From Candidatus Micrarchaeota archaeon (GTDB taxonomy: Archaea > Micrarchaeota > Micrarchaeia > Anstonellales > Bilamarchaeaceae), in contig JAHFFJ010000004.1 in assembly GCA_023248035.1 (NCBI GenBank), positions 12,048 to 54,163 of the forward strand: a stretch of DNA of 42,116 bases, given 5' to 3'. Positions 706 to 29,454 of this stretch are shown in pieces. The stretch's first letter is position 1. Every line of letters starts with the position of its first letter. The position numbers were made by a program, and so were the translations under genes. The notes under the pieces are model-generated. The model was not told where the DNA came from, made no database searches, and saw only the letters and a program-made list of their open reading frames with translations.

Positions 706-790
706 TAGGCGCGAGCGGATGCGGGTTTCAGCCCGCAGATAGCGAGCGCATTTTAGTTTTCCGTGCGAGTCCTCAGGCGAGCGAACGGAA
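706..790 (+). repeat. GC-rich GCGAGC-repeat patch ending in a copy of the intron M module
   Basis: Four GCGAG(C) copies in about 80 nt plus hairpin gcggg-tttcag-cccgc. Positions 763-787, gtgcgagtcctcaggcgagcgaacg, match the M module gtgcgagccgata(a)ggcgagcg(a/t)ac found inside the tRNA introns at 9602-9626, 18722-18745 and 23129-23154. Confidence 0.45.
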
Positions 791-9423: not shown

Positions 9424-9544
9424 CCACTTTACAATAAAGTGAAATTTTCTTAAATCCGACCATAAAAAAAGCCATTTTTTCTGTTTTATCTACATAGAAA
9501 TAGTCAATCTAACATTTCAAAATGAAAAATAGCCCCGGGCAGAT

Positions 9545-9760
9545 TCTCGAGCTTTTGGAAAAAGCTCGACCAAAACGGTCTGCTAATTTTTGCTTTTTTC
9601 TGTACGCTCGCCTTATCGGCTCGCACAGAACTGATAACAAAAATGGTTTACTAAAGTTCAGTAATTTTCCGATAAGGAAAATTCAACTGAACAAAAACCA
9701 AAAACCCGAAAAGGGTTTTCAACAGAAAGTTTTGATCAAAACTTTTTCTAAAAGTTTTGT
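9545..9760 (-). other. tRNA-Gln intron 2, inside the T-loop (~216 nt), full-length modular element
   Basis: It separates GGCAGTTCGA from ATCTGCC; the junction is ambiguous within GAA. It contains H1 (9738-9758), H2 (about 9700-9720), H3 (9656-9692), M (9602-9626), ccaaaacggtctgctaat (9570-9587) and H4 (9547-9569). Confidence 0.7.
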
Positions 9761-9803
9761 TCGAACTGCCGTCAAGAGGTCCAGAACCTCCTATCCTTGA
9801 CCA

Positions 9804-9915
9804 AAGTCTGCACTTTTTTAGGAAAAAAGTGCACAAAAAACTGGTTTGTTATCAGTCAAAAACCCGAAGGGGGTTTCAACACCAATTTTTGATCCAACTT
9901 TTTTTGAAAAAGTTG
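9804..9915 (-). other. tRNA-Gln intron 1, inside the D-loop (~112 nt)
   Basis: It separates GTCTAGCC from TGGTCAAGGAT. It contains hairpins ccaac..gttgg (9894-9916) and gcac..gtgc (9810-9832) and an H2 copy (about 9858-9878). Confidence 0.7.
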
Positions 9916-9955
9916 GGCTAGACGACGGGGCTATAACTGAAATTTGTTTGATAAG

Positions 9956-9965
9956 TAATAAAATA
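9956..9965 (-). promoter_or_regulatory. TATA-like box for tRNA-Gln
   Basis: Minus-strand TATTTTATTA lies 24-33 nt upstream of the tRNA 5' end (9932). Confidence 0.45.
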
Positions 9966-10009
9966 CTACTTATGCGAGCTATTCACTCTGGCAGAATGCT
10001 TAGATGACT

Positions 10010-10135
10010 GTTCAGTAATTTTCCGATAAGGAAAATTCAACTGAACAAAACCAAAAAACGAAACTTATATATAGTGGGAAACTTCTAATAAATGTGTACA
10101 GTTAGTTTTTTGGTTCTTTTTTCCTAAAAAAGAAC
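10010..10135 (-). repeat. Solo (non-tRNA) fragment of the intron element
   Basis: Positions 10010-10046 are a 37/37 identical copy of hairpin H3 (9656-9692; reverse complement at 18665-18701), followed by caaaaccaaaaaa. Positions 10112-10135 are an H-type hairpin, ggttcttttttcctaaaaaagaac. No tRNA exon-like sequence flanks them. Confidence 0.6.
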
Positions 10136-10189
10136 GGTGAATATGATGGTGAATAAGGAGGTTAAGGAAAGGGATTTCCTTCATAGGCA

Positions 10190-10468
10190 GGGATTTACTT
10201 CATTCGGCTCGATTCAAAGGGTCGACTAGTTTTACCTTTGGAAATAAGGGATGCCATAGGAATTGAAACTAATGGCAAAGTTCTGCTAAAAATTGTCACT
10301 AGTGTGAGCGCTAAATCGTCGAATGCAGCAGTAGCAAATTCTAATAGAAAAATTACTATAGAACTAGCGAAAGCTCCGGAGCCACCGTCAACTGATGAAG
10401 TTAATATTTTTCCATATTCTAGAAACGGAGCGTATATCAGAAAAAGGGAGGAAGATAAATATGATTAA
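10190..10468 (+). CDS. AbrB/SpoVT-fold (swapped-hairpin) small protein, start codon unclear
   Basis: The frame is open from 10187 and encodes ..GIYFIRLDSKGRLVLPLEIRDAIGIETNGKVLLKI, i.e. the classic DSKGR(I/L)V(I/L)P.EIR AbrB/MazE signature. The track start (TTG 10238) would cut off this motif. Only ATT codons (10193, 10202) are available upstream. Confidence 0.55.
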   Translation, partial: GIYFIRLDSKGRLVLPLEIRDAIGIETNGKVLLKIVTSVSAKSSNAAVANSNRKITIELAKAPEPPSTDEVNIFPYSRNGAYIRKREEDKYD

Positions 10469-11426
10469 AGTACCACGTCCAGTTCGACCTAGCTACAAAA
10501 ATGAATTTGTAGAAAAAAGAGTGGTTTCCTACATGTTTTTGCCACCAGAAACACCTTACTGTAATACTCGGTGTACCGGTTGTTATGTTTTTGATTCTGG
10601 TTCTTATAGAGCAAGAGTTCAGAGAACAGATGCAGAAATATTATATGATATAGAGAATTTAACGTCAAAAGGTTACACGGTATATCCAACTACAACAGAA
10701 ATATTGATGATGCGAGATTATTTGAGAATTTTACAAACAGTAGGTGCAAAGTCAGTATTAACAAATGGAATATTAATTACTGAACAACCGGAAATATCAG
10801 AACAGCTAAAATCTATTGGAATTGAACAAATTATAATAACGGGAAATTTTGAGAACAGCGGTTTAAGTCTTACCCCAAATAAACTAATCGAAAGAGCGAT
10901 AGATACAATAAATGCTAGCAAACTTGGCATTCTTCTTAGAATAACTATAACTCCGGAAAACCTAGAAGCAATTCCCGATATGGTTCGCTCATGCGCCTCT
11001 AGGGGAATTAGGATAATCGAATTTATGAGGTATGTTCCGCTTGGAAACAGCGGTGCAGTTAGTTTAAATGACGAACAAACAAGGCGATTTTTTTCTATCC
11101 TAGAACAAATGCGTAAAGATTATCCGGATATCTATCTTGCTCCTACTGGAACATTCGGTACTCAATATAGAAAAAAACAATGGAAATGTACCTCCGGTTA
11201 TACCTATTTCGCAATAGGTTTGGATAATCTCGTTTATCCCTGTATCTTTTTGACCCAAGCAGAAAATGCAATTGGCAAGTATGAAGGTGGCGAAATAATT
11301 ATTCAAAGAAATTTCGAAGCCGCAGGTGACCAGTATGATTGCCCAGCCTATAGCTATGCTTCTAGAAGATCTGGTCTAATTCCTGCAAATAAGCTAGTAA
11401 GAAATGGAGGTGTAAAATATGACTAA
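10461..11426 (+). CDS. Radical SAM protein with a short Cys-containing (Twitch/SPASM-like) C-terminal region
   Basis: CNTRCTGCY is the CxxxCxxC motif. The C-terminal part has C-x9-G-x7-C (CTSGYTYFAIGLDNLVYPC) plus one further Cys (DCPAY). The preferred start is ATG 10461, preceded by GGGAGGAAG and overlapping the stop of the previous ORF (ATGATTAA). The track ORF starts at 10395. Confidence 0.8.
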   Translation: MIKVPRPVRPSYKNEFVEKRVVSYMFLPPETPYCNTRCTGCYVFDSGSYRARVQRTDAEILYDIENLTSKGYTVYPTTTEILMMRDYLRILQTVGAKSVLTNGILITEQPEISEQLKSIGIEQIIITGNFENSGLSLTPNKLIERAIDTINASKLGILLRITITPENLEAIPDMVRSCASRGIRIIEFMRYVPLGNSGAVSLNDEQTRRFFSILEQMRKDYPDIYLAPTGTFGTQYRKKQWKCTSGYTYFAIGLDNLVYPCIFLTQAENAIGKYEGGEIIIQRNFEAAGDQYDCPAYSYASRRSGLIPANKLVRNGGVKYD

Positions 11427-11452
11427 AATGAAAAATATGGGAGAGTCTAAGA

Positions 11453-12883
11453 GTGGAGGTCAGAACGGAAGGGATTTACTTCATCTCTCCTAAAAGGGGA
11501 ATAAGTTTTGGTGGTGTAAGTGAACTTACAGAATCTCTTCGTTTGCCCTATGTAACATCGGCTTTAGAAATGCAAAAAGAATTGGAAATCCGTACTGGTG
11601 ATAGAGGAAAAGTTGCAAAAGAAAAAGCCTGCCGTTGGTTATATGATAGATGGGGAGTAAATATATTTCGTGGTTGGTGTATTGATTCTGGTGGCATTGC
11701 AATAGGAAATGAAACTCTAAAAGATTTTTTATCTGCATACTACAGAGGATCAAATATTCGTGGTATGGTAACTATTCCGCAATATGTATTAGACAAGTTT
11801 AAACCAAACGTCGGAATCGATACCCAAATGGAGTTTAAAGGTCTCTGGCTTCCACGTCAAATAGCACGCTTTGATGGAGAAGCACTAACGTCTCTTGCAA
11901 TTGCAAAATCTATGGAGCTTAGAGCTGGAATTCTAGAGTTGACATTAGATGCCTATGCAGATACTGGGTACAAAAGTAGCTTTATTTCGCAATATCAAGT
12001 GGATGAAGCGGGAGGTAAAATATCTACTGTGGAAAGTCCCAGGCCTGAAAGAGGTTTCTGTTTGGCAGATATCAAGAAGCCTGTTACAACACTTTCATAT
12101 GATGGTAATAACACCGAGCTTCGTACGAGGCTTTGCGGACTTCAGAGTTATTATCTATCAGAAATGTTCGTGCCCCTACCTCTTCGAGATCTCCAGTTAC
12201 CTACATACCTGCCAAGTAAGCTCTACATTGACGATCTTACTCCTTGCTATTGTGCAGCATTAGTCCAGAATCTCATGAGCGGAAAAGAACCAATCCCATC
12301 AATTATGGTGAGAGACGGAATTAGATCCACCAAGAACGAAAGCGGTCGAATTACATTCACCAATCTTCGTATTAATGCGAATGTACTTCTCACCCTTAGA
12401 TGGACTGGAGAATGCTATTCCTCTCCTTATGGAAATATCAAACTTACCAAGGATGAGGTTATCCAGCTCGCTTGTACGTTTGATGCCCGACCTTCTGCAG
12501 AATGGAATTATCAAAACCTCTACCTTTTCCTACCTGGTATATTATTTCCAGAAATGGGATTTTTGGTAACTCCATTCGAATTTGATGATGAAAAAATTCT
12601 TGGTGCCACTAAGCGTGCAATAGAATTTGCAAGAGCGGAATTCGGTTTAGCACCACTACTAGTTCCGTTCCTGCCTATGTCATGGCTAAAAAACTCATCA
12701 CTGCTAAAGGCCACATCCAAAGTAGGGAAATACCCGGAATATGCACAATATAAGTTATCTGACCAAACTATTGGATCACTTATTGGGTTAGGGGCGGAAT
12801 CTTCAATAGAAAGGTCAGTTAAACTTGGTTTAGCTCTTGCAGAAATAGTTTCCAGGGATGAAATTAAGGTGAGGAAGCGATGA
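11453..12883 (+). CDS. Hypothetical 476-aa protein (no recognisable family)
   Basis: Long ORF with a GTG start 8 nt after GGGAGAG. Its stop overlaps the next start (ATGA). The N-terminus ..EGIYFIS shares a 14-nt identical motif with the AbrB-like gene. Confidence 0.7.
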   Translation: MEVRTEGIYFISPKRGISFGGVSELTESLRLPYVTSALEMQKELEIRTGDRGKVAKEKACRWLYDRWGVNIFRGWCIDSGGIAIGNETLKDFLSAYYRGSNIRGMVTIPQYVLDKFKPNVGIDTQMEFKGLWLPRQIARFDGEALTSLAIAKSMELRAGILELTLDAYADTGYKSSFISQYQVDEAGGKISTVESPRPERGFCLADIKKPVTTLSYDGNNTELRTRLCGLQSYYLSEMFVPLPLRDLQLPTYLPSKLYIDDLTPCYCAALVQNLMSGKEPIPSIMVRDGIRSTKNESGRITFTNLRINANVLLTLRWTGECYSSPYGNIKLTKDEVIQLACTFDARPSAEWNYQNLYLFLPGILFPEMGFLVTPFEFDDEKILGATKRAIEFARAEFGLAPLLVPFLPMSWLKNSSLLKATSKVGKYPEYAQYKLSDQTIGSLIGLGAESSIERSVKLGLALAEIVSRDEIKVRKR

Positions 12884-13869
12884 AATTCCTACCATCACTT
12901 TTCTGCCTCAATAATGTTCCTCTTGTTAGTGGCTACGAGAGGAATTTTTATGATTCTTTTCTGGAATTACTCAAAGCAGAACTTCCGGAACGTGAAATAA
13001 TCGTTGAAGGTTCAAACTTTATCGTACTACCTGAAAAGGAGGGTAAGTGCGATACTATTCTTGTTGCTCACTATGACCAGGTTGGCCTTGTTGTTGATGC
13101 ACAATACAATCAGAAGCTCTATCGCGCTAAAAAAATTGGTCTACTTAACCCATCATCGGTTTATGGCAAGGTTCTCCAGAGTGTGGTTGATGGTAAAATA
13201 ATTCGGGCAGTTGCTTCTAGTCCTCCACCCCATGTCAAAGCTGAAGAAAGTAGGATTTTTCTGGAACTTGAAGAGCCAATAGAGTTAGCTCCGTTTTGGC
13301 CATTCTCATTCGAAAATCGTATGATAAAGACCCAGTCTAGTATTTTTTCTCCAGCTCTAGACAATAGAATTGGAGTTATCTGCTCAATACAGTGTGCTAA
13401 AAACTATGGAACTGGTCTTCTACTAACTGCAGGTGAGGAAACAGGTACTACTCGCTTGCTGCCATCGTTGGAGAATATCGAGCGAGTGGTAACCAATCCA
13501 AAATACATAGTTGTAGATGCAACTTTTTCAAAATCTGATCCAACCTGTAATGGTTATCTGGGGGATGGCTCAGTTGCATTTATCTCAATTGAAGGTGGAG
13601 GTAGCGGAAACATTGCACCTCAAAATCTAGTAGGCAAAATGAAAAACCTAGCTCTAAAAGAAATCAAAACAGAAGAAAAAGATGCAACTACTGATGCCAC
13701 AACCTTTTATCGTTTAGGGCGAGAAGCTGTTGCAGTAGTCTATCCAATATCCTACATGCACAGTAGCATGGAAAAAATTGAAATTGCAACTATAAGTTCT
13801 CTCTACCGGTTCCTTAGAGCCCTTAACTACAATGGTTTTAATACAATTCCAGAGGATATCATCTTATGA
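12880..13869 (+). CDS. M42-family (TET/FrvX-like) metallopeptidase
   Basis: The motifs VSGYE, AHYDQVGLVV, PPPH, ALDNRIGV, TAGEETG, VVDAT and YMHSSME occur in the M42 order. The positions of the metal ligands H, D, EE, D and H are retained. Confidence 0.75.
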   Translation: MKFLPSLFCLNNVPLVSGYERNFYDSFLELLKAELPEREIIVEGSNFIVLPEKEGKCDTILVAHYDQVGLVVDAQYNQKLYRAKKIGLLNPSSVYGKVLQSVVDGKIIRAVASSPPPHVKAEESRIFLELEEPIELAPFWPFSFENRMIKTQSSIFSPALDNRIGVICSIQCAKNYGTGLLLTAGEETGTTRLLPSLENIERVVTNPKYIVVDATFSKSDPTCNGYLGDGSVAFISIEGGGSGNIAPQNLVGKMKNLALKEIKTEEKDATTDATTFYRLGREAVAVVYPISYMHSSMEKIEIATISSLYRFLRALNYNGFNTIPEDIIL

Positions 13870-15104
13870 AGCTCACACCAAAAGGCATGCGGGATATTGC
13901 CCCTGAGGATATGTTAGTTCGGGAAGACGTAATTGATAAAATCCGTTCCATCTTCAAAAAGTATGGCTATCGTCCTCTGGAAACACCTGCAATGGAATAC
14001 CTAGAAACACTTCGTGCAAAAGCAGGTTCGGAAGCAGATAAGCAGATTTTTGTCCTTGATGGGGGAGAGTACGGACTCAGATTCGATCTCACAGTTCCTC
14101 TTGCCCGCTACGCCTCATCAACTGATGATCCAAAACCATTCAAGAGATATGCAATTGATGTTGTTTGGAGGAAGGAAGAACCACAGCGAGGGAGGTTTAG
14201 GGAATTTTACCAGGCTGATGTGGATATTGTTGGTAGTAGTTCCATGCGTGCTGAAGCTGAGATACTTTCACTTTCAAGAGATGTTTGTTTCGCTTTTGAT
14301 TTTAAAAAACCAAAAATCCTAATCAACAACAGAAAAATCCTAGATGGAATTGCAGCAAAGCTGGGAGTGGAAGAGCAATCAAAAACCGAGCTTTTCCGCA
14401 TACTGGACAAGCTTGATAAAATCGGGGAAGAGGAAGTAGGCAAGCTTCTAAAAGAAGTTTTAGGGTCAAAGGCTGCTGAATTGCTCAAAATAATAAAATC
14501 AAAAGGAGATAACAAAACAAAACTTAAGCTCGCAGCAAAATATAGTGAAGAGGGTGCCCACGAGATCGAAGAATTAATCGCCCTTTGCGATTTTGAAGTA
14601 GAATTCGACATGTTCCTTGTACGGGGGCTTGGTTACTATACAGGTCCTGTTTTCGAGATCAAAATAAGTGCTGATATGGGTTCAATTGCTGGCGGGGGTC
14701 GTTATGATAACCTGCTTGGTGTCTATGGCCAATCATCTCCTGCAGTCGGTATCTCTTTTGGGATTGAACGACTCATCACACTTATTAGTGAGCGTACTAA
14801 ATACAACAAAAAAACTTCCACTCAGGTGCTTGTTAGTGCCGTGAAAACGGAATTTTATCCAAACGCAATTTCTGCTGCTTCCCAACTCCGTAATGGTGGG
14901 GTGGCTGCCGAAACCGATCTTAATGAACGCAATCTTAGGAAGCAGTTCGATTATGCAAATGCACTTGGAATACCTTTTGTTGCAATAATCGGCGAGAGGG
15001 AAATCACAGCAAAAAAAGTAACTTTGCGTGATATGATTTCAGGTAAAGAGGAAACCCTTTCACTTGAAGAAGTAATATCAAAAATAAACGGGCTATCTAA
15101 ATGA
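13866..15104 (+). CDS. hisS: Histidine--tRNA ligase
   Basis: 412-aa ORF with PKGMRDIAPEDM, RYEEPQRGRFREFYQ-like (WRKEEPQRGRFREFYQADVDIVG) and GGGRYDNL motifs. Confidence 0.93.
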   Translation: MKLTPKGMRDIAPEDMLVREDVIDKIRSIFKKYGYRPLETPAMEYLETLRAKAGSEADKQIFVLDGGEYGLRFDLTVPLARYASSTDDPKPFKRYAIDVVWRKEEPQRGRFREFYQADVDIVGSSSMRAEAEILSLSRDVCFAFDFKKPKILINNRKILDGIAAKLGVEEQSKTELFRILDKLDKIGEEEVGKLLKEVLGSKAAELLKIIKSKGDNKTKLKLAAKYSEEGAHEIEELIALCDFEVEFDMFLVRGLGYYTGPVFEIKISADMGSIAGGGRYDNLLGVYGQSSPAVGISFGIERLITLISERTKYNKKTSTQVLVSAVKTEFYPNAISAASQLRNGGVAAETDLNERNLRKQFDYANALGIPFVAIIGEREITAKKVTLRDMISGKEETLSLEEVISKINGLSK

Positions 15105-15628
15105 CGCTGCTAATTCCAATCCTTTACATAAAAGACAAGCAGGTTTTTGCAAAAGAAGGTGGCATGCTTAGGCTTATGGGCAAGCCAATCGATGTGGTGA
15201 AAAAACTTCAGAAAAAAGGGTTCAAGCTCGTTCATTTTGTAGATAGCGATGCGCTGGTGGGCATCACCACAAACATGGACACTTACGATGCACTTACCTA
15301 TTTCATAAATATCCAGGTAGAATGTGCTCCAAATCCAGTATTCATAAAAAAACTGCTATCAATAAAATGCCGGGTGGTTCTTCCTGCTGAGCATTTACCA
15401 AGTGAAAAGAATAAACTGCTTGTTGGAAAAGTTCGAAAAGGTTATGATGGAAAAGCAGAAGGATTTGGTGATGTAATAATCGATCATGACCCATCGCTCG
15501 TGCAAAAATTCATCAAACTCGGTAAGCGAGTTATCGTTTTTGAAGGCTCGAAAAATTATAGTAAAGAATGTAGTAAAGAAATATGGGGCTTACTTCTTTC
15601 TGAGAAGTCTGCTTTTGACAGCAGCTAA
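15101..15628 (+). CDS. HisA/HisF-like (beta/alpha)-barrel family protein, short (175 aa)
   Basis: LLIPILYIKDKQVFAKEGG...GKPIDVVKKLQKKGFKLVHFVDSDALVG parallels the HisA N-terminus (IIPAIDLKDGK.VRL.QG....DP...A......GA..LHLVDLDGA). Its start overlaps the hisS stop (ATGA-type). Confidence 0.45.
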   Translation: MTLLIPILYIKDKQVFAKEGGMLRLMGKPIDVVKKLQKKGFKLVHFVDSDALVGITTNMDTYDALTYFINIQVECAPNPVFIKKLLSIKCRVVLPAEHLPSEKNKLLVGKVRKGYDGKAEGFGDVIIDHDPSLVQKFIKLGKRVIVFEGSKNYSKECSKEIWGLLLSEKSAFDSS

Positions 15629-16453
15629 TTTTGTTGCCAAGGCCGCACCTTTGAGAGGTAGCGGTCTTCCAAGTTTCTTTTTTCCTACTGTCTCTGTTTT
15701 CACTTCGCTTACATCTACTGGTTTTTTGACTATAAGTGCTTTTTCTGGTTTTTCACCACTCATTATTGTGAATCCTCTTTCATCAAGTATTGCAGCGTAA
15801 GATTTTGTCGAATGCTTTACTCCTTTCATCTTTATCACTTCAAGGTAACGCATTCTCTCCATGCTCTTATCATCGTAGCGGTAAAATAAATTTATCCAAC
15901 CGTCGCTAAAGCTTTCTATGCTATATTCTGAGTTTGGGCGTGCCCCAGAATTTGACATTTTAAAATCCTCAGATATGATCAGTGTGGTGACACCCCATTT
16001 TCTGATATTTTCTATGAACTTAAGAAATCCTTTCTTTCTTTCATCTTCACCATGGAAAAATAGTGCTATTGGCATTACGGAATCTATTACCACCCTCTTT
16101 ATCCCGGTGGTATTTATTATTTCATGGATGGCTCCTGACTGCGTGACTATTTGATCCACTTCGTGTATTGGGTAATCAAGCAAAATAAATTTCCGCTCCT
16201 TTTCAAGGGAAGAAAAATCCCACACATAGCCACTCACATGAAAGAAGAAGTCCTTTCTACTCTCCTCTATAGCTATATAGAGGCCTGGTTCTCCCATCAT
16301 TGCTCCATTATAGATGAACTGCGCCCCGAGCGTACTTTTCCCCGATCCTGTAGGGCCACTTACTGTTATTACTGATCCTTCTAGCAGCCCGCTGCCAGCA
16401 ACACTATCTAGTCCCGGTATCCCGCTTTTTATAAATTTACGTTCTGGAGCCAT
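15590..16453 (-). CDS. KaiC/RecA-superfamily ATPase
   Basis: GIPGLDSVAGSGLLEGSVITVSGPTGSGKSTLGAQFIYNGAMMGEPGLYIAIEE contains Walker A and KaiC-like context. The C-terminal tail is Lys-rich. Confidence 0.85.
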   Translation of the reverse strand: MAPERKFIKSGIPGLDSVAGSGLLEGSVITVSGPTGSGKSTLGAQFIYNGAMMGEPGLYIAIEESRKDFFFHVSGYVWDFSSLEKERKFILLDYPIHEVDQIVTQSGAIHEIINTTGIKRVVIDSVMPIALFFHGEDERKKGFLKFIENIRKWGVTTLIISEDFKMSNSGARPNSEYSIESFSDGWINLFYRYDDKSMERMRYLEVIKMKGVKHSTKSYAAILDERGFTIMSGEKPEKALIVKKPVDVSEVKTETVGKKKLGRPLPLKGAALATKLAAVKSRLLRKK

Positions 16454-16948: not shown

Positions 16949-17102
16949 TCCTATTTCTTGATTGTCTGTAACGGTTTAAATACCTCCCCAGTTCCAGACA
17001 TTCTGACATATCTTATCAGATCAAGCCCATTTTTTCCTTCCCTTTTTTGTCTTCATCAGTCTTCTAGATGTTTTTTAAACTCGTCTAGACAACCTATATG
17101 CG

Positions 17103-18098
17103 GTGCTACTCATGTCTGAATGGAAATCTCAAAAACCTAGTGGGGATAGAGGCGGAAAAAGATCTAATGAACGTCCAAATCGATCAGGATATCGCGGGGG
17201 CGGCAATCGTTCCAGAGACGAAAATAGTCGTGGTTATGGGCGAGATTATAATCGTGGCGGAAATGACGATGGCGGTTTTAACAAGCGCGAGCGCTTTATG
17301 CGAAAATCCCGTGACAGCGTTATGCAGGCGTTAAAAAGCCGTGACATGCTTCTTGCAAGCGTAACAAAGTCCATCGAAGATCTGGATAAGACAATTAACC
17401 TTCTTGGCGAGCGTCTTGAAGACTGGTATAGTCTTTATTTCCCAGAACTTAAGACTGATGAAAAAATCAAATTTTGCAATGCAATACTCATAATTGACCG
17501 AGATAATTTTGATGAAAACGCTCTCTCTGCTATACTTGGCCAGAAGCATGCTTTAGAACTTGCACAATCATCTAAAACAAGTCTTGGAACAAAACTCTCT
17601 TCAAAAGACCTTTCAGAATGTCTTTTACTTGCAAAATCCATTCTTTCTCTTGAAACTTTAAGGAAGGATTACGAAAATTATCAGAAAGAACTTGCACATG
17701 AACTTTGTCCCAATCTTTCTGAAGTTGGCGGTCCGGAAATCGCTGCAAAGCTGGTTTCACATGTAGGTTCACTGGTGAGACTTGCAATGCTCCCTGCGAG
17801 TGCGATACAGGTTTTGGGTGCGGAAAAAGCCCTTTTTAAACACTTAAAGAACCGCAGAATCCCTCCTCCAAAGCACGGAATAATATTTCAATATGCACGC
17901 ATTTCATCATCACCAAAAAGTGTTAGGGGTAAAATTGCCCGTGCACTTGCAAACAAGCTTTCAATCGCTGCAAAGGCCGATGCATTTACAAAAAATCCAA
18001 TATTCGCTGATCTGAAAAAGGATCTCGAAACTCGTCTATCTGAAATCATGGTGGATTACGAGAGACAAAAGAAAGCAAAAGTAACTCCTCCAGCTTAA
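17103..18098 (+). CDS. nop5: Nop5 (Nop56/58)-family C/D box RNP protein with an RGG-rich N-terminus
   Basis: The coiled-coil and Nop domains are colinear with archaeal Nop5 (LGERLEDWYSLYFPEL; VLGAEKALFKHLKNRRIPPPKHGIIFQ; GKIARALANKLSIAAKADAF). The first ~75 aa are GDRGGKRSNERPNRSGYRGGGNRSRDENSRGYGRDYNRGGNDDGGF. The likely start is ATG 17112. Confidence 0.85.
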   Translation: MLLMSEWKSQKPSGDRGGKRSNERPNRSGYRGGGNRSRDENSRGYGRDYNRGGNDDGGFNKRERFMRKSRDSVMQALKSRDMLLASVTKSIEDLDKTINLLGERLEDWYSLYFPELKTDEKIKFCNAILIIDRDNFDENALSAILGQKHALELAQSSKTSLGTKLSSKDLSECLLLAKSILSLETLRKDYENYQKELAHELCPNLSEVGGPEIAAKLVSHVGSLVRLAMLPASAIQVLGAEKALFKHLKNRRIPPPKHGIIFQYARISSSPKSVRGKIARALANKLSIAAKADAFTKNPIFADLKKDLETRLSEIMVDYERQKKAKVTPPA

Positions 18099-18108
18099 GG
18101 TAATCCAA

Positions 18109-18498
18109 ATGATTCGTGTACGTGCTGTTAAGCCATCTGAAATAGATGATGCAAAAAATTTCATAAGGCGCATTTTTCCAAATGCAATGGTACAAATAAC
18201 CGAAGACGATCTTCTTCTTCTGGCTGAGGAAATGGGTCAGTTTGTTGGTTTTGCACACATAATCGATGAAGGCGAACGAGTTCTTATTCAGGGAATTGGT
18301 GTTACTGAATCTATGCGTGGACAGGGTGTTGGTACAATTTTGCTCGAACACATCCTCCATGCCCTACGTGATAATGACCGACCGATTTTCCTTAAGGTAA
18401 AAGCTTTAAACCCGGTTATCGACCTATATTGCCGATACGGATTTTTCCTTCACCGCTTTGGAGATTCGCATATGCTGGTAAAAAAAGTTGATAACTAA
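18109..18498 (+). CDS. GNAT-family N-acetyltransferase
   Basis: IQGIGVTESMRGQGVGTILLEHIL is the acetyl-CoA motif A (Q/RxxGxG/A). Confidence 0.85.
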   Translation: MIRVRAVKPSEIDDAKNFIRRIFPNAMVQITEDDLLLLAEEMGQFVGFAHIIDEGERVLIQGIGVTESMRGQGVGTILLEHILHALRDNDRPIFLKVKALNPVIDLYCRYGFFLHRFGDSHMLVKKVDN

Positions 18499-18524
18499 GC
18501 TATTCAAGTCCCATTAGGGACTTC

Positions 18525-18533
18525 TTTTTATTT
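18525..18533 (+). promoter_or_regulatory. TATA-like box for tRNA-Pro
   Basis: TTTTTATTT lies 26-34 nt upstream of the tRNA 5' end (18559). Confidence 0.4.
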
Positions 18534-18558
18534 CCTTCGTCTTTATTTCATATCAATC

Positions 18559-18830
18559 GGGGAAATGAGCTAACCTGGTATGCTGTCAGCTTTGGGTCTC
18601 CACCTTTTAGGAAAAGGTGGAGCCAAAACGTGCTGTTTCAAAACCCTTTCGGGTTTTTGGTTTTGTTCAGTTGAATTTTCCTTATCGGAAAATTACTGAA
18701 CTTCACAAACCATTTTTGTAAGTGCGAGCCGATAGGCGAGCGAACGAAACAAAAATTAGCAAGACTGTTTTGGGTACCTTTTAAGGTATCAAAAGAGCTG
18801 GTTGTCTGAGTTCAAATCTCAGTTTCCCCA
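18559..18830 (+). tRNA. tRNA-Pro(UGG) with a 199-nt intron at 37/38
   Basis: Exon 1 is 18559-18596 (GGGGAAATGAGCTAACCTGGTATGCTGTCAGCTTTGGG). Exon 2 is 18796-18830 (AGCTGGTTGTCTGAGTTCAAATCTCAGTTTCCCCA). Features are acceptor GGGGAAA/TTTCCCC, anticodon arm TCAGC-TTTGGGA-GCTGG, T arm CTGAG-TTCAAAT-CTCAG and discriminator A. Confidence 0.88.
18597..18795 (+). other. tRNA-Pro canonical-position intron (199 nt), full-length modular element
   Basis: It contains H1 ctccaccttttaggaaaaggtggag (18598-18622), H2 aaaaccctttcgggtttt, H3 (18665-18701), M (18722-18745), attagcaagactgttttggg (18755-18774) and H4 gtaccttttaaggtat. CAAA (18790-18793) pairs with loop nt 32-35 UUUG, leaving an AG|A bulge at the 3' splice site. 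Confidence 0.8.
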
Positions 18831-18975
18831 TAAAAGGAACCAAGGTTCCTTTTTATCCTCCTTTGAAAAGAACCAATGGTTCTTTTTGAATCTCATGAAA
18901 GAACCTACGGTTCTTTCTATCTCCCTCTTTTTTGAATCAAGGTTTCTTTCTAACTTCCTTTTCTTTGAGTATTTT
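18831..18975. repeat. Tandem array (~4 units, ~33-nt period) of palindromic hairpins
   Basis: The units are aaaaggaaccaaggttcctttt, gaaaagaaccaatggttcttttt, gaaagaacctacggttctttc and a degenerate fourth, separated by the pyrimidine spacers atcctcc, gaatctc, atctccc and aacttcc. The first hairpin plus T5 sits directly 3' of tRNA-Pro (terminator-like). Confidence 0.75.
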
Positions 18976-19077
18976 AATTTACAATTTTGTTCTAAAATCG
19001 AAATTTAGTGTGTTTGGACTGCACTTATTGGGTAAAAACAACGAATCATTTATATATTTACTGGCGAAAAACATCTC

Positions 19078-20211
19078 ATGGCAACCAGTATAAGACAGAA
19101 ATCTCCCAGTTTAGAAAAAAAAAGTAAAAAAATAAAAGTATCCGCATTTCACAAGGCTCCCGATAAATACAGCTTTAGTCATCTGGCAAAAATACTTACA
19201 AGTGGTGAACGTCTTGCAATGCTTAGTGCAGTTGACCGTCTAAAAGGGCGAGTGAGAGTTCTTATCGAACTTGCACTTTTTTCGAGTTTTCCCTTTGTAA
19301 GGCTTGCTGCAATCTCAAATCTCTCCCACGATGTCGAAGCTCTTATTGACATCGCTAAATTCTGCCAGCATGAAGATACTCGTGCTTCAGCAGTGGATGA
19401 ACTTTCACACGATCCTGATGCCCTAGCTGAAATTGCATGCTCCTCTCTCTTTGGGGGAACCAGACTCGCTGCAGTGCACAATCTTTCCAATCCAGATTCA
19501 CTCGCTGAAATAGCATCACGCTCTCCAAATAAAGATTCCCGTTCAGCAGCAGTTGAGAAAATTGCAAATAATCCTGCAGCACTAAAAAAAGTTGCAGAAA
19601 ACTCACCTTATAGAAATGTACGCATGCAGGTTATCAATCTCCTTTCCTCAAATATCGACACCCTATGTTCGCTTGTGCTATCCAAGCACAATCAGGTGAA
19701 AAAAGCTGCAGTTTCCAAGCTCTCACTTTCAGTTGAGGAAATTGAAGATACCGAAGCACTAATCCAAATAGCAAAGTTTTCGCAAAATGAGGATTCTCGC
19801 TACATCTCGGTGGGGAGGCTTTCTAACGATCCACTTTCACTAAAGGCCGTTATTTCAGATTCAGAATATACTGACTCACGTTCAACCGCACTCATGCTTC
19901 TTTCTGATATGGTAAAAAAATTGCACGACCCGGAACTTCTTTCCGATGTCGCAATACTTTCACCATATGCAGATTGTCGGTCTGCAGCAATCGATCGCCT
20001 TGTTGGTCAAAATTCAGCACTTTTATCTGTAGCAGCAAAATCCAAATTCAGAAATTCGCGAGATCAGGCTCTCCATAAACTTAAGGGAGATGTTGAAGCT
20101 TTAAAGAGCCTCTCCAAACTATCCCGCTATCCTGATACACGCAAAAAAGCACACCATCTTGTTTCAAAACCTGATGTTTTCGAAAACGAACTCGTGCGAA
20201 TCCTGGGATAA
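19078..20211 (+). CDS. Alpha-solenoid (HEAT/LRV-like) repeat protein
   Basis: 377-aa ORF with about 30-aa repeats of the form ..D.R.aAv..LS.DP.AL..IA.. (for example EDTRASAVDELSHDPDALAEIA and KDSRSAAVEKIANNPAALKKVA). Confidence 0.6.
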   Translation: MATSIRQKSPSLEKKSKKIKVSAFHKAPDKYSFSHLAKILTSGERLAMLSAVDRLKGRVRVLIELALFSSFPFVRLAAISNLSHDVEALIDIAKFCQHEDTRASAVDELSHDPDALAEIACSSLFGGTRLAAVHNLSNPDSLAEIASRSPNKDSRSAAVEKIANNPAALKKVAENSPYRNVRMQVINLLSSNIDTLCSLVLSKHNQVKKAAVSKLSLSVEEIEDTEALIQIAKFSQNEDSRYISVGRLSNDPLSLKAVISDSEYTDSRSTALMLLSDMVKKLHDPELLSDVAILSPYADCRSAAIDRLVGQNSALLSVAAKSKFRNSRDQALHKLKGDVEALKSLSKLSRYPDTRKKAHHLVSKPDVFENELVRILG

Positions 20212-20247
20212 CCTTCTTTTTTAAGTGTTTGTTTATAGATAGTTGTA

Positions 20248-20955
20248 ATGGCAGCAACATCAAGGCCACCTTCAGTTGCTCTACCGCCAGAACAAAGACC
20301 ATCTCCATTTGCTCTGGATCCAGAACAAAGACCAAAACCCAAAGGTACTTATAGTTCTAGATCACCTCAAGTTGAATCTCCTCAATCTATACGCTCTGTT
20401 ACTCCTGCTAATCGATCTGGTGCAATATCCAGAAAGCCTCGATCAGACCAAGAAGAAAAATTATCTCCAGAAGAAAAAACAAGGCAATTGACCCTTATAG
20501 CAAGACTAAAAACAAATGTAGCCGGAATCACATCCGATGATTTTTCAGAATTTATTAGAGCTAGTACTGATTGCGAAGTTGCTTTGGCTTTCACTTCTCT
20601 TTTGGCAGTGTATCTTGATCGGCACGAACCGGAACATATATTTCTTGTTTCTATCTTAGTTGCCTTTTCTGGTTCAGAAGAACTTAGGAGTCATGGCATT
20701 CTTTGTCTAAAAAACATAGCGAAAAATGGCCATAATATTTGTGAATTCTTAGACTCTACTGGCAATTCCAACTCCACAGGCCCTACAAATCCACTTAGAC
20801 TTATTATGGAAGATATAAATCTATCAGGTATTTCCAATATAATTGATATACTTGTGTTGCATGCAAATCTTGGTCATACTCAAAGAGCCCAAGTTTTAGA
20901 TGTTATCGAAGGGAAACCCGATTTTGTTAGACTAAAAACTGCGTTAACTATATAG
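20248..20955 (+). CDS. Hypothetical protein with a Pro/Ser-rich repeat-containing N-terminus
   Basis: 235-aa ORF with the internal DNA/peptide duplication PPEQRPSPFALDPEQRPKPKG. Its stop abuts the 3' end of the convergent tRNA-Thr. Confidence 0.5.
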   Translation: MAATSRPPSVALPPEQRPSPFALDPEQRPKPKGTYSSRSPQVESPQSIRSVTPANRSGAISRKPRSDQEEKLSPEEKTRQLTLIARLKTNVAGITSDDFSEFIRASTDCEVALAFTSLLAVYLDRHEPEHIFLVSILVAFSGSEELRSHGILCLKNIAKNGHNICEFLDSTGNSNSTGPTNPLRLIMEDINLSGISNIIDILVLHANLGHTQRAQVLDVIEGKPDFVRLKTALTI

Positions 20956-20989
20956 CCTCGGGAGGGATTTGAACCCCCGGCCTCCTCCT

Positions 20990-21107
20990 TGCCCGCTTTT
21001 GGTAAAAGCGGGACCAAAACAGTCTTGCTAATTTTCGCTGCGCGAAAATGTAAAACCCGAAAGGGTTTTCAACAGAAAGTTTTGATCCAACTTTTCCTAA
21101 AAGTTGG
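20990..21107 (-). other. tRNA-Thr intron at 37/38 (118 nt), element variant lacking H3
   Basis: It contains H1 ccaac..gttgg (21087-21107), caacagaaagttttgatc, H2 (about 21051-21070), ccaaaacagtcttgctaat (21014-21032) and H4 cccgc..gcggg (20992-21012). Intron nt -6..-3 CGGG pair with loop 32-35 CUCG, leaving a CA|A bulge. Confidence 0.75.
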
Positions 21108-21128
21108 TACGAGAGAGGCGCTCTACCA

Positions 21129-21208
21129 TTTTTCGCGCTTTTTTAGTAAAAAAGCGCACCAAAAAACTAACAATAAGTTTTTGATGCACCTTTTTTCTAA
21201 AAAGGTGC
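21129..21208 (-). other. tRNA-Thr D-loop intron (80 nt), minimal element (H1 - closing stem - H4)
   Basis: It separates GCTCAGT from TGGTAGAGC. The hairpins are gcacc..ggtgc (21186-21208) and gcgc..gcgc (21135-21157), with AUCAAAAAC...GUUUUUUGGU between them. Confidence 0.7.
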
Positions 21209-21245
21209 ACTGAGCTACCGAGGCTTTAATTCAAATTAAATAGTC

Positions 21246-21255
21246 TATTTTAAAA
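21246..21255 (-). promoter_or_regulatory. TATA-like box for tRNA-Thr
   Basis: Minus-strand TTTTAAAATA lies 22-31 nt upstream of the tRNA 5' end (21224). Confidence 0.45.
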
Positions 21256-21496
21256 GACCTGAGCATTTTCATGAAAGTGTACCCCCGGAGAAAAAATTCA
21301 AATGAACAGGGAAAAAAGGATGATGTTTACTGAATTTTTGACTTGGATAACTGTGGGTGTCAATACGGATGAAGTTTGATGAAACTTTACCATAAGTTTA
21401 TAGGAGGAAAGTTTCGTTTGATGAAACTTTAACTGGAGTCTGTACGAAGTAAAGTTTCAAATGCGCCCGCCGGGATTCGAACCCGGGTCATTAGCT

Positions 21497-21543
21497 CTCA
21501 TCTTTACCCCTAGTTTTGGGCCGCCTTTTCCTAAAAGGCGGAA
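21497..21543 (-). other. tRNA-Gly anticodon-loop intron (~47 nt)
   Basis: It lies between CTTCCA and AGCTAA. It contains the H-type hairpin ccgccttttcctaaaaggcgg (21521-21541) followed by CCCAAAAC. I could not draw a clean 4-bp central helix for a canonical BHB here. Confidence 0.6.
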
Positions 21544-21564
21544 TGGAAGGCTAAGATCCTACCG

Positions 21565-21678
21565 TTTTCCAAGCTTTTAGGTGCGAGCACACCCTGTTAG
21601 GGCGTGTCGCGGTTTCATCAAAACCGATTCGTTATTTTTAACTAATCAGTTTTTGTGAAACTTTTTCCTAAAAAGTTT
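21565..21678 (-). other. tRNA-Gly D-loop intron (~114 nt)
   Basis: It contains hairpin aaac..gttt (21658-21677), CACAAAAAC...GGUUUUGAUG, and a long GC-rich hairpin gtgcgagcacaccctgttagggcgtgtcgc (about 21581-21610) at the M-module position. Confidence 0.6.
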
Positions 21679-21717
21679 GCTAGACTACAGGCGCTTTTTT
21701 CTTTTGTTGTTAAGTTG

Positions 21718-21727
21718 TTTTTAAAAA
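21718..21727 (-). promoter_or_regulatory. TATA-like box for tRNA-Gly
   Basis: TTTTTAAAAA lies 24-33 nt upstream of the tRNA 5' end (21694). Confidence 0.45.
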
Positions 21728-22192
21728 TCACAGCTTTTTCCTCATTTCTATGTGCATGTCTCTAAAACCCCACTTCTTGTACAATCCATGGGCTTCAGGA
21801 TTTATCGCATGCACCCCTATAGATGCATACGTCATCTTTTTCTTTTTGAACCATGCAAGCGTTTCTTTTACTAATTGCTCACCGATGCCTTTGCCACGAT
21901 ATTTTTCCTTCACATACAAATCAAATATATGACCAAGCCTCTTGAGCTTGAAAACTTTCACGTTGTTCTTTATTGCGCTTAATGAATACCCCACTATTTC
22001 GTCATCCTCTTTCGCAACAAGTACGAGCCTATTCGACGATTTTATACCTTTCAAGACCCATAGTTTCCATTTGCGTTCGGCGTCATCTACTAAATCAAGC
22101 ATCGAGCTTCCACGTATCCTGTGGAATTGCATGAGTTCGTTCCATAACACTAAAAGAACTTTAACATCTTTTGGAGTGGCCTTTCTTATCAT
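21728..22192 (-). CDS. GNAT-family N-acetyltransferase
   Basis: 154-aa ORF. LYVKEKYRGKGIGEQLVKETLAWFKK is motif A. Confidence 0.85.
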   Translation of the reverse strand: MIRKATPKDVKVLLVLWNELMQFHRIRGSSMLDLVDDAERKWKLWVLKGIKSSNRLVLVAKEDDEIVGYSLSAIKNNVKVFKLKRLGHIFDLYVKEKYRGKGIGEQLVKETLAWFKKKKMTYASIGVHAINPEAHGLYKKWGFRDMHIEMRKKL

Positions 22193-22839
22193 CAGAATAC
22201 GCCAGCCAGTTCAGCCAAAAAGGTTTTAGGATCTTTAGCTTTTACAAATGCACTTGCAAGCAACACTCCCTCAGCACCCAATTCCAGGGCTTTTTTTACA
22301 TCCTGCTTGTTGCTCACACCTGCTCCACAAAGCACCTTCACATGGTGATTGACATCTTTGATTGCACGTACTGAGTTTACCACTATTTCCGGACGCACCT
22401 TTGAAACACTAATTCCCTTGCCTATAAGTTCTGGAGGTTCCACAGCAATAAAAGTGGGTTTATGCGATACTATCGAAGCCGCTTCATTAGTTGTTGCTGC
22501 ACAAACAATACTCTCTAACCCATTCATATGTAGCCTTTCTATAGTTTGGGCCATCTTATCGCGAGCAAGTTTTTTCTCAGAATGATTTATAATCGAGCCT
22601 TTTACCTTTATGTCCTTTAACATCTCAGCAGCTATCGAACCAGTGTACGCTCCTGGAGGTTCAGGGTCAGTATGTTGTGCAAATATATCACACGAGCGGC
22701 CTGTTGCTTCCTTAAGGTAGGGTGTAGGTGGACAAACAACTATTCTAAGGCCGGTTTTACCCACAATCTCATCAGCTATGTCTGCAAAAAGAAGCGATCT
22801 TTCTATATCTGTATATGTCTTAAGGTTAAGGACTATCAT
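22192..22839 (-). CDS. tpiA: Triosephosphate isomerase (short archaeal type)
   Basis: 215-aa ORF with NLKTY, IINHSEKKL, AVEPPELIGKGISVS and CGAGVSNKQDV...GVLLASAFVKAKDP. Confidence 0.9.
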   Translation of the reverse strand: MIVLNLKTYTDIERSLLFADIADEIVGKTGLRIVVCPPTPYLKEATGRSCDIFAQHTDPEPPGAYTGSIAAEMLKDIKVKGSIINHSEKKLARDKMAQTIERLHMNGLESIVCAATTNEAASIVSHKPTFIAVEPPELIGKGISVSKVRPEIVVNSVRAIKDVNHHVKVLCGAGVSNKQDVKKALELGAEGVLLASAFVKAKDPKTFLAELAGVF

Positions 22840-22877
22840 AATCTACTATGGTGAAAGTAATCTTATTAATAGCTTTT

Positions 22878-22885
22878 AAAAAAAA
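22878..22885 (-). terminator. Oligo-T tract directly 3' of tRNA-Ser
   Basis: Eight consecutive T on the minus strand start at the nucleotide after discriminator G (22886). Archaeal RNAP terminates at oligo-T. Confidence 0.5.
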
Positions 22886-22900
22886 CGCCGAGGGCAGGAT

Positions 22901-23006
22901 CCCCAACTTTTAGGGAAAGTTGGATCAAAACAGTCTTGCTAGTTTTAAAAACCCGGAAGGGTTTTTCAACAAACTGTTTTTGTAAAACTTTTTTCCTAAA
23001 AAGTTT
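22901..23006 (-). other. tRNA-Ser T-loop intron (~106 nt), element variant lacking H3/M
   Basis: It contains H1 aaaac..gtttt (about 22984-23007), caacaaactgtttttgt, H2 aaaaacccggaagggttttt (about 22947-22968), tcaaaacagtcttgctagt (22924-22943) and H4 ccaac..gttgg (22903-22923). Confidence 0.7.
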
Positions 23007-23035
23007 TTGAACCTGCAATCCACGAGGGATCGGCT

Positions 23036-23072
23036 CTCTCGTAAAATTTGTTCCGTTTTTCCAACAGATCCG
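23036..23072 (-). other. tRNA-Ser canonical 37/38 intron (37 nt)
   Basis: Loop nt 32-35 CUCG (23078-23075) pair perfectly with intron nt -6..-3 CGAG (23041-23038). The 3' bulge is AG|A. Confidence 0.8.
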
Positions 23073-23096
23073 TTCGAGACCGACGCACTACCGGAA

Positions 23097-23187
23097 TGCA
23101 CTGCTGCCTCCAGTTTCCCGTTTTGTTTCGTTCGCTCTCCTTATCGGTTCGCACGAAACTGAAAACTCGAGACTGAAAACGCAATTA
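23097..23187 (-). other. tRNA-Ser D-arm intron (~91 nt)
   Basis: The junction is ambiguous within a duplicated GCA. It contains hairpin CGCA-TAAT-TGCG, the direct repeat GTTTTCAGT x2, the M module (23129-23154, RNA GTGCGAACCGATAAGGAGAGCGAACG) and AAACAAAA as in the Pro intron. Confidence 0.6.
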
Positions 23188-23200
23188 TGCGACCTCGGCA

Positions 23201-29304: not shown

Positions 29305-29454
29305 TTGGTTTACATAAGTTCTAGAATGAGACTTTCGAGGGCATTATTTTTTGCTGGTGCTATCTCCACTTTGGGATGTAATAGGGAAAAGAATTGGTGT
29401 ATTTAAGAATACTGTCTGCTCTGAATAATCTAATCAACTGAATTAGCCGAGAGT

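Follow-up and report, generated by a model that had tools for sequence, protein, structure and literature searches.

How did long and similar inserts come to lie at different positions of different transfer RNA (tRNA) genes, and are these genes still alive? The question is raised by a 42-kb stretch of DNA from a Candidatus Micrarchaeota archaeon (42,116 nt, hereafter the window). It contains five split tRNA genes (Gln-CUG, Pro-UGG, Thr-CGU, Gly-UCC and Ser-CGA) with ten introns, which amount to 1122 nt of intron against ~372 nt of exon (Table 1). An earlier reading of the letters by a model (hereafter the sequence-only reading) had estimated about 1120 and 373 nt. It had rightly recognised tRNAs with several introns, and introns of related sequence that lie at three structurally distinct positions, and it proposed either a miniature inverted-repeat transposable element (MITE) that exploits tRNA splicing or a functional intron-derived RNA. 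The best-supported view of the ten inserts is that they are functional bulge–helix–bulge (BHB) introns in live tRNA genes; we infer their actual splicing from the sequence of the junctions. We lean towards the explanation that DNA-level hairpin repeats colonised and enlarged these introns, with an inverted doublet as the scaffold and further repeats nested in it.

Splice junctions and the hairpin unit at the intron ends

Every candidate pair of splice sites was scored against the strict BHB geometry, which requires an exon helix, a central helix of 4 bp and bulges of 3 nt that are cut behind the second base. The results showed a 2+1 bulge geometry with 4/4 central pairs in seven introns, 3/4 in two (Gly 37/38 and Gly D-loop) and 2/4 in one (Thr D-loop). 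The exon helix was 5-6 bp at the 37/38 and 59/60 sites. When the boundaries were left free, the Gln, Thr and Gly D-loop introns were placed at 15/16, right after the invariant AG, where the 5' strand of the D-stem pairs with the intron tail (Gln 4/4, Gly 3/4, Thr 2/4). The D-loop introns of the sequence-only reading are therefore real, but BHB scoring and the relatives L002 and L005 put those of Gln, Thr and Gly at 15/16 with lengths of 114, 81 and 115 nt. The 15/16 junction was seen independently in L002, where tRNA-Gln(CUG) has a 14-nt intron with a perfect GUCU/GGAC helix. In L005, the D-arm of tRNA-Thr (GCUCAGUGGCAGAGC) is uninterrupted and that of tRNA-Ser is intact; the latter fixes the Ser intron, earlier assigned to the D-arm, inside the D-loop (window 23184-23096). 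A first boundary for this intron at 8/9 was rejected, as it gave no BHB and the L005 orthologue shows the true exon.

All ten junctions fit a strict or relaxed BHB. H1, H4 and the linker helix P2 take the place of the canonical intron-side helix, hence the motif is relaxed there. In-silico splicing of the ten introns gave five canonical cloverleaf tRNAs that were called by ARAGORN (Gln ctg, Pro tgg, Thr cgt, Gly tcc, Ser cga).

A ~28-nt unit stands at the start of eight introns out of ten; it is a hairpin C-U4-6-RGG-A4-6-G followed by (A)UCAAAAC. The hairpin has an invariant C-U4-6 / A4-6-G core, an RGG loop and 3-5 variable complementary closing pairs, and in the unit-bearing introns its 5' copy, H1, always begins 1 nt past the 5' splice site. 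The intron 3' end (GUUUUGRU plus H4, with a CCU-type loop), when reverse-complemented, is the same family as the 5' end (H1, with an AGG or GGG loop, plus AUCAAAAC). Nineteen H1-side and reverse-complemented H4-side units align as one family with 69% column identity and the invariant core. The intron ends form a terminal inverted repeat, in which H1 and its linker are the reverse complement of linker' and H4. The unit was found at both ends of the Gln D-loop, Gln T-loop, Thr D-loop, Thr 37/38 and Ser T-loop introns; H4 is degenerate in the Pro intron, and both Gly introns have the 5' unit only. H4 ends 2-6 nt ahead of the 3' splice site or overlaps the exon-pairing 4-nt strand.

This overlap by the 3' strand of H4 was observed in the Thr 37/38 (20992-21012), Gln T-loop (9548-9568) and Ser T-loop (~22903-22925) introns. 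In consequence, the 5' strand of H4 imitates the end of the exon (CCCG vs CUCG; UCGAG vs UUCGA). The mimicry could be a structural switch, or it could be the trace of a palindrome extension that copied flanking sequence.

The module alignment of the sequence-only reading held under formal alignment. Under unsupervised MAFFT, H1 and the CAAAAC linker stayed in register in 11 of 13 introns (those of relatives included) and H2 in 6. The Ser 37/38 and Ser D-loop introns fell outside, except for M in the latter, and Gly 37/38 fell inside. The two short anticodon-loop introns had been thought to share little or nothing with the others; this is right for Ser 37/38, but Gly 37/38 has H1 and the linker. 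A profile made from the aligned units found 14 of them in the window, 13 in introns and one upstream of tRNA-Gln, on opposite strands at the intron ends. It found zero further units in the remaining ~40 kb of the window, and none near any protein gene there. The 14 units are the training sequences of the profile, so that the informative outcome is the absence of extra copies.

The predicted folds of the introns are far more stable than those of shuffled sequences (z=-3.2 to -8.2). Two competing conformers are predicted, a three-helix form (H1, P2, H4) and a rod with the inverted repeats paired together, which arises because the intron ends are inverted repeats. A kissing-loop between H1 (AGG) and H4 (CCU) was considered and rejected; their complementarity is more simply due to the inverted-repeat ends and appears as the rod conformer.

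Covariation was assessed in metagenome copies of the unit. Three or more complementary flank pairs were present in 84% of 128 independent units, vs 19% with shuffled partners, and these 128 units used 21 different stem sequences. With 45 distinct units in a fixed register, the covariation score was 0.369 vs 0.088; none of 500 shuffles was as high, and slid controls gave <=0.10. The three variable inner pairs used AU, UA, GC and CG, and never G-U. The strong covariation points to a unit hairpin under selection. It runs almost wholly through Watson-Crick pairs, without G-U at the variable inner positions, which fits a DNA-level palindrome rather than a purely RNA-level constraint. RNAalifold gave no pairs on the MAFFT unit alignment, in which the variable-length U/A runs were staggered. 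The unit covariance model R1 is sequence-only, and covariation was tested on core-anchored units instead. No description of the unit motif was found by a full-text literature search for the motif strings. A search of Rfam with the core and with all modules gave no family match, with 0 hits at the gathering threshold and sub-threshold noise only in a permissive scan; models of box C/D small RNAs, group I/II introns and known ribozymes were thus not matched either.

Table 1. Split tRNA genes, introns and related repeat features of the window (H1 and H4, unit hairpins at the 5' and 3' intron ends; P2, linker helix; H2, H3 and M, interior modules; fractions, central-helix pairs)
Feature	Positions	Strand	Content	Junction and predicted fold
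tRNA-Gln(CUG) gene	9530..9932	-	73 nt mature, two introns; spliced form called tRNA-Gln(ctg) by ARAGORN	
Gln D-loop intron 15/16, 114 nt	9804..9917	-	b3, H1, P2 enclosing H2, H4, then AGAC+UU	central helix GUCU/AGAC 4/4; three-helix fold z=-4.8
Gln T-loop intron 59/60, 216 nt	9544..9759	-	H1, P2 enclosing H2, H3, M, then H4	BHB UUCG/CGAG 4/4, exon helix 5 bp; fold z=-8.2
tRNA-Pro(UGG) gene	18559..18830	+	one intron	
Pro 37/38 intron, 199 nt	18597..18795	+	H1, P2 enclosing H2, H3, M; degenerate H4; CAAA+AG	BHB UUUG/CAAA 4/4, exon helix 6 bp
tRNA-Thr(CGU) gene	20954..21224	-	two introns	
Thr D-loop intron 15/16, 81 nt	21129..21209	-	minimal H1-P2-H4 inverted doublet	relaxed BHB, 2/4
Thr 37/38 intron, 118 nt	20990..21107	-	H1, P2 enclosing H2 and small hairpin, then H4	BHB CUCG/CGGG 4/4; fold z=-5.9
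tRNA-Gly(UCC) gene	21462..21694	-	two introns	
Gly D-loop intron 15/16, 115 nt	21565..21679	-	H1, P2 hairpin, GC-rich M-like hairpin	3/4; fold z=-7.8
Gly 37/38 intron, 47 nt	21497..21543	-	single-unit form: H1 + CCCAAAAC + tail	3/4, exon helix 5 bp
tRNA-Ser(CGA) gene	22886..23199	-	three introns	
Ser D-loop intron, 89 nt	23096..23184	-	without H1/H4 unit; holds M; junction ..CGCAUAA/U...GUGCAU/UCCGG	BHB GCAU/GUGC 4/4
Ser 37/38 intron, 37 nt	23036..23072	-	outside the family; no MAFFT alignment with it	BHB CUCG/CGAG 4/4, exon helix 6 bp
Ser T-loop intron 59/60, 106 nt	22900..23005	-	H1, P2 enclosing H2, then H4	BHB UUCA/UGGG 4/4; fold z=-3.2
Element-like copy outside tRNAs, upstream of tRNA-Gln	10010..10136	-	H1-type hairpin 10112-10136, CCAAAAAAC...GUUUUUUGG, UUUUG, H3 10010-10046	
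Two M-like GCGAG...CGAGC hairpins	711..783	+	intergenic/3'-of-gene DNA; repeat family D13	
IS200-type element, approximate ends	29426..30109	+	Y1 transposase gene 29587-30027, Pfam Y1_Tnp E=2.5e-20; no other gene encoded	

Nested repeats, relatives and the distribution of the unit

The motifs quoted by the sequence-only reading are real and far above chance. H2 is present at five loci in the window (expected 0.01) and H3 as three identical 37-mers. The UUAGCAAGACUGUUUUG tail has three copies within 3 mismatches and a one-base-deletion variant in the Gln T-loop intron as the fourth. M has two copies within 3 mismatches, and its third copy, in the Pro intron, differs by the deletion of one base (repeat family D13). 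What changed is how they are put together. The introns had been described as length variants of one modular element with an optional block. Eight of ten do share the unit, but they consist of an inverted-unit scaffold in which H2, H3 and M are nested independently. Because H3 and M are separate repeats found outside tRNAs, the optional block is better read as a set of nested insertions. The third H3 copy, identical to the other two, lies outside any tRNA in the element-like copy upstream of tRNA-Gln (repeat family D8, 96%). The introns had also been called always co-oriented with their tRNAs. This says little about the ends, which are inverted copies of a palindromic unit; an orientation is defined by the interior modules only. 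Exact scans with the H3 core found no match in species-representative genomes, viral contigs or Joint Genome Institute (JGI) metagenomes, and H3 appears to be strain-specific.

M copies in introns are real, but M is not confined to the tRNA region. Three introns carry M-type hairpins, which are also found at 711-783 and directly after the Y1 transposase gene of the insertion sequence (IS) of the IS200 type (30029-30076). The motif GCGAGC-N-GAUAM-GGCGAGC is conserved in M and in the right ends of the IS200-type element of the window, of L131/L132 and of L133-136. Homologues of the element have conserved ends in different flanks (L128 vs L130), with 55-89% identity and mostly on contigs <2 kb. 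Since the same element is found in different flanks, the family is mobile and active in these communities. A tblastn search with the Y1 transposase of the window against all loci collected found no other copy. M resembles IS200/IS605 end hairpins and palindrome-associated (PATE-like) miniatures in sharing the right-end motif. It differs from them in carrying the right-end-like motif only, without the left-end hairpin, and in having a variable lower stem of its own. We take M for a probable miniature derivative of an IS end.

The hexamer GCGAGC is ~fourfold over-represented in the window (30 observed vs 7.9 expected; 22 on + and 8 on -), and some copies have coordinates inside long open reading frames (e.g. 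7061-7352, 17287-17407). The Ser 37/38 intron of L005 (~9150-9180; GCGGAGGCUCGCAAGAGAGCGCCGCGAUU) holds GCUCGC, which is the M core in reverse complement, so that introns of relatives contain M-type sequences as well.

The relatives' loci were compared at about 70% protein identity to the window. The tRNA-Pro exons are identical in L003 and L006, where the orthologous introns are 81-83 nt long and have other content; the Pro intron of L003 shares only 15 nt with that of the window. In L002 the syntenic tRNA-Gly has no intron, and the 14-nt intron at 15/16 is the only one of tRNA-Gln, whose T-loop is uninterrupted. L003 has the Thr D-loop intron and L005 does not, and the Thr 37/38 intron has the same architecture in both. 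In tRNA-Ser of L005 only the 37/38 intron was found, and the D-loop and 59/60 sites are empty. Within the window, the Gln T-loop and Pro 37/38 introns are 82% identical over 188 columns in different tRNAs and at different positions, and the Gln T-loop and Thr 37/38 introns are 93% identical over the first 56 nt. These identities are strong indications of recent copying between introns of the window.

The hairpin unit is neither tRNA-intron-specific nor lineage-specific. The pattern of H1 and linker was found in at least 120 metagenome stretches and in 45 viral-contig stretches, and the profile gave 193 hits in 100 loci. In metagenomes the unit occurs in co-oriented tRNA introns (37/38, D-loop and T-loop), in 16S ribosomal RNA (rRNA) introns, at tRNA ends and beside protein genes; among the matches listed, it also forms inverted doublets and spacer-less arrays without a tRNA nearby. 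Counts by context are lower bounds, as the strict T-arm filter used for classing the matches missed obvious tRNAs (e.g. L009). The host contigs have 20-66% GC, and 5 of 120 among the matches listed encode close homologues of window proteins. The archaeal 16S rRNA genes in L113 (9285-10955) and L021 (8290-8965) each carry a ~50-nt single-unit intron (H1 + AUCAAAAAC + tail) near E. coli position ~1068. At tRNA ends, the hairpin side lies 0-7 nt before the mature 5' end (L011, L095, L108) and 4-5 nt past the 3' end (L101, L127). An arrangement of GUUUUUGAU, CCU-loop hairpin, Shine-Dalgarno and AUG recurs just upstream of protein genes in archaeal-type contigs (L012, L014, L024, L054, L055, L060, L078, L087, L092), and the same arrangement stands before the tRNA 5' ends in L011, L095 and L108. 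L087, with Shine-Dalgarno-proximal copies, is archaeal.

The viral stretches (L137-L181, e.g. L161, L167, L168) show the same complementary flanks, doublets and arrays, and the unit lies between genes and between tandem tRNAs. The unit-bearing viral contigs encode major capsid protein, D5 primase, Rpb2 and MutS7-like proteins of nucleocytoplasmic large DNA viruses (NCLDV); these proteins identify them as genuine giant viruses (Nucleocytoviricota). A ~28-nt repeat common to archaeal chromosomes and giant viruses of eukaryotes was unexpected.

A promoter/terminator cassette was also considered. The idea was prompted by TTTTTGAT at -30 to -23 of tRNA-Ser in L011 and by the many copies 5' of Shine-Dalgarno and AUG. 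It was rejected, as the hairpin side adjoins gene starts (27) as well as gene ends (41). A promoter role in the window was rejected as well; its own tRNA genes have ordinary TATA-like boxes at about -30, and its protein genes have no unit nearby.

Weighing the explanations

From the junction geometry, the exon conservation against intron turnover, the covariation of the unit and its wide distribution we propose a history of the introns with a putative mechanism of mobility. The tRNA splicing endonuclease would remove the introns at BHB or relaxed BHB junctions, and RNA ligase would join the exons. Short or new BHB introns would have been colonised and enlarged by DNA-level hairpin repeats. Either transposition or recombination at the inverted repeats that the introns share may then have spread the copies between introns or made them alike. 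Insertions into essential tRNA genes, and into 16S rRNA in other archaea, would be tolerated because they are spliced out of the RNA, and these genes would thereby become landing sites.

Several points weigh against this reading. Three introns have poor central helices. Runs of T5-T6 lie within all unit-bearing introns (e.g. 9809-9833, 21134-21158), up to four per gene. Such runs normally serve as archaeal termination signals; here the hairpin context would mask them, unless termination works differently in this lineage. The gene survey spans the 42-kb window, and uninterrupted isoacceptor copies may exist elsewhere in the genome. Within the window the unit is confined to or beside tRNA genes, which fits a tRNA- or RNA-specific process too. 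H2 (5/5) and H3 run in the same direction as the tRNAs, a hint of RNA-sense copying or selection. Within one genome the closing stems vary from copy to copy, which is not expected of simple copy-and-paste. No direct repeat or target-site duplication was evident at the single filled/empty pair read (Thr D-loop, L003 vs L005). No transposase or recombinase was tied to the H1/H4 unit in the window, whose only transposase (IS200-type) has different ends.

Repetitive extragenic palindromes and their doublets (REP/REPIN) with their REP-associated tyrosine transposases (RAYT), as well as MITEs, are short palindromes dispersed in non-coding DNA, often in inverted doublets or clusters and with terminal inverted repeats, and are non-autonomous. 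The units of the window are likewise short palindromes with inverted doublets and terminal inverted repeats. Unlike REP/REPIN and MITEs, the unit came without a cognate transposase, and without a target-site duplication at the one filled/empty pair read; its closing stems vary, and it sits inside essential RNA genes, from which RNA splicing would remove it. The flanks of the Y1 gene carry M-type, not H1/H4-type, hairpins, which is not the REP/REPIN-RAYT arrangement. A MITE exploiting tRNA splicing is the better of the two options in the sequence-only reading, with terminal inverted repeats and many dispersed copies in its favour, but no autonomous element with the same ends was found in the loci collected. 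A bolder form of the idea is that the unit is a previously undescribed class of tiny palindromic mobile elements ('intron MITEs'), whose doublet hairpin ends recreate the endonuclease substrate and so let them reside in essential structured RNA genes (tRNA, 16S rRNA), and that it is the missing agent of archaeal tRNA intron gain and has crossed between archaea and giant viruses. We regard this as possible, with the balance tilted against it.

Intron 'transposition' is known in archaea, and the best reading of the introns built from hairpin repeats is that they are a new variant of it. The tRNA introns of Thermoproteales have been described as 'transposed' by a mechanism still unknown (Fujishima et al. 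2010, as summarised in PMC4090602). As in Thermoproteales, highly similar introns occur here in different tRNAs and positions, and orthologous sites are empty or unrelated. The present case differs in that the host belongs to the DPANN Micrarchaeota, the introns reach 216 nt, and they show an explicit inverted-repeat hairpin unit in a composite with nested repeats; the unit is also found outside tRNAs (rRNA introns, intergenic doublets and arrays, giant viruses). The locus thus offers a defined candidate agent for the spread of tRNA introns, a ~28-nt inverted-repeat hairpin unit with DNA-type covariation. This candidate is found inside and outside spliced RNAs and related loci vary in intron presence, which makes the question testable.

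The unit might instead be mainly an RNA-end or processing signal for a hairpin-recognising nuclease. It would mark the boundaries of functional RNAs (ends of exons, both ends of tRNAs, 5' regions of mRNAs), and the introns would be one use of a general excision tag. This agrees with the placement of the hairpin side, which follows 5' exons by 1 nt, precedes 3' exons by 2-6 nt and lies near mature tRNA ends; it also agrees with the many archaeal copies directly 5' of Shine-Dalgarno and AUG and the giant-virus copies between tRNAs and genes. The transcript 3'-end signals of Mimiviridae (the 'hairpin rule') are intergenic hairpins that an RNase III-like enzyme nicks, and these hairpins are described as without sequence conservation (PMC4402537). 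Like them, the unit is an A/T-rich palindromic hairpin that lies between genes and tRNAs in giant-virus genomes; unlike them, it is conserved in sequence and shared with archaea. However, the splice sites are already explained by BHB geometry alone, and hairpin sides abutting gene starts (27) and gene ends (41) alike leave no consistent role. The missing G-U pairs favour a DNA-level constraint, and the window has no unit near its protein genes. We consider a processing signal unlikely, but a rival to be taken seriously.

Concerted evolution only, in which ancient introns at classical sites (15/16, 37/38, 59/60) were homogenised by gene conversion without transposition to new sites, is to us an equally unlikely account. 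The ~28-nt shared ends would supply the homology, the 15/16 site also carries a short intron in a relative, and the interior was copied while the closing stems remained intron-specific. However, sites are empty in relatives at Gly 15/16 and 37/38, at Gln 59/60, and in L005 at Thr 15/16, the Ser D-loop and Ser 59/60; therefore gains or many losses are required. Units also occur in non-intron DNA.

A functional structured RNA encoded by the long introns, which might circularise once excised, is improbable. Such an RNA would account for the very stable multi-branch folds (z down to -8.2), the co-orientation of the interior modules and the two ~200-nt copies that are 82% identical. Archaeal tRNA-Trp introns offer a likeness: they are long (~100 nt) and encode box C/D small RNAs, and the introns of the window are also long with their own structured RNA content, but these lack C/D boxes and a K-turn signature and match no Rfam family even at permissive thresholds. 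The case for the conserved ~200-nt core proposed by the sequence-only reading is weakened by relatives at about 70% protein identity, in which the interior is not retained. In addition, H3 is seemingly strain-specific, M is related to an IS end, and the modules occur singly outside tRNAs.

That the loci are tRNA pseudogenes wrecked by repeat insertions, an outcome the sequence-only reading had foreseen, would fit the blank results of standard tRNA finders, the T5-T6 runs within the genes and a genome survey limited to the window; we give it very little credence because the spliced products are canonical, perfect cloverleaves and the Pro exons are identical in L003 and L006 despite differing introns, and also every insertion lies at an intact BHB-compatible junction, exons are identical or near-identical in relatives with different introns, and the relatives' loci are likewise without uninterrupted tRNAs over tens of kb.

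Host, tRNA annotation and neighbouring arrays

The neighbouring genes of the window are archaeal in kind (Nop5, archaeal-type phosphoenolpyruvate carboxylase and several aminoacyl-tRNA synthetases). The sole relative among species-representative genomes is a Candidatus Micrarchaeota metagenome-assembled genome, and a lineage-specific HEAT-repeat protein has ~80 homologues, of which the named ones are Micrarchaeota, Micrarchaeia or Ca. Bilamarchaeum. On these grounds the host is assigned to the DPANN archaea, in the phylum (Micrarchaeota) of archaeal Richmond Mine acidophilic nanoorganism 2 (ARMAN-2). In the cited sections on ARMAN-2 Micrarchaeum, 56% of tRNA genes are disrupted and an epsilon2 splicing endonuclease cuts relaxed BHBs (PMC3239211; see also PMC12397907). 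The likeness to Ca. Micrarchaeum acidiphilum extends from the phylum to multiple introns per tRNA, including 59/60, and a tolerated relaxed BHB (PMC3239211, PMC12397907). The difference is that its two in-vitro substrate introns are 13 and 25 nt, and the same sections report no shared modular or repeat architecture. The host presumably has a broad-specificity epsilon2 endonuclease, by analogy with its phylum (PMC3239211); no splicing endonuclease gene was among the 20 window proteins scanned.

ARAGORN and Rfam called zero tRNAs in the raw 42-kb window, and ARAGORN called zero in the relatives' loci L003, L004, L005, L006 and L007 (~97 kb total). Split tRNA-Thr, -Pro and -Ser genes are nevertheless present in these loci. 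Automated tRNA counts for such Micrarchaeota genomes are likely to be severe underestimates, and the tRNA complements of DPANN genomes of this kind would be badly under-called.

Tandem arrays with a period of ~33 nt were observed at window 18832-18962 and 41379-41616, one just 3' of tRNA-Pro and the other 5' of the isoleucyl-tRNA synthetase (IleRS) gene. Their repeats consist of differing hairpins (AAAAGGAACC-AA-GGTTCCTTTT) followed by ATCCTCC-like spacers, and are distinct from the H1/H4 unit. On the reverse strand the spacers read GGAGGAT, which is Shine-Dalgarno-like.

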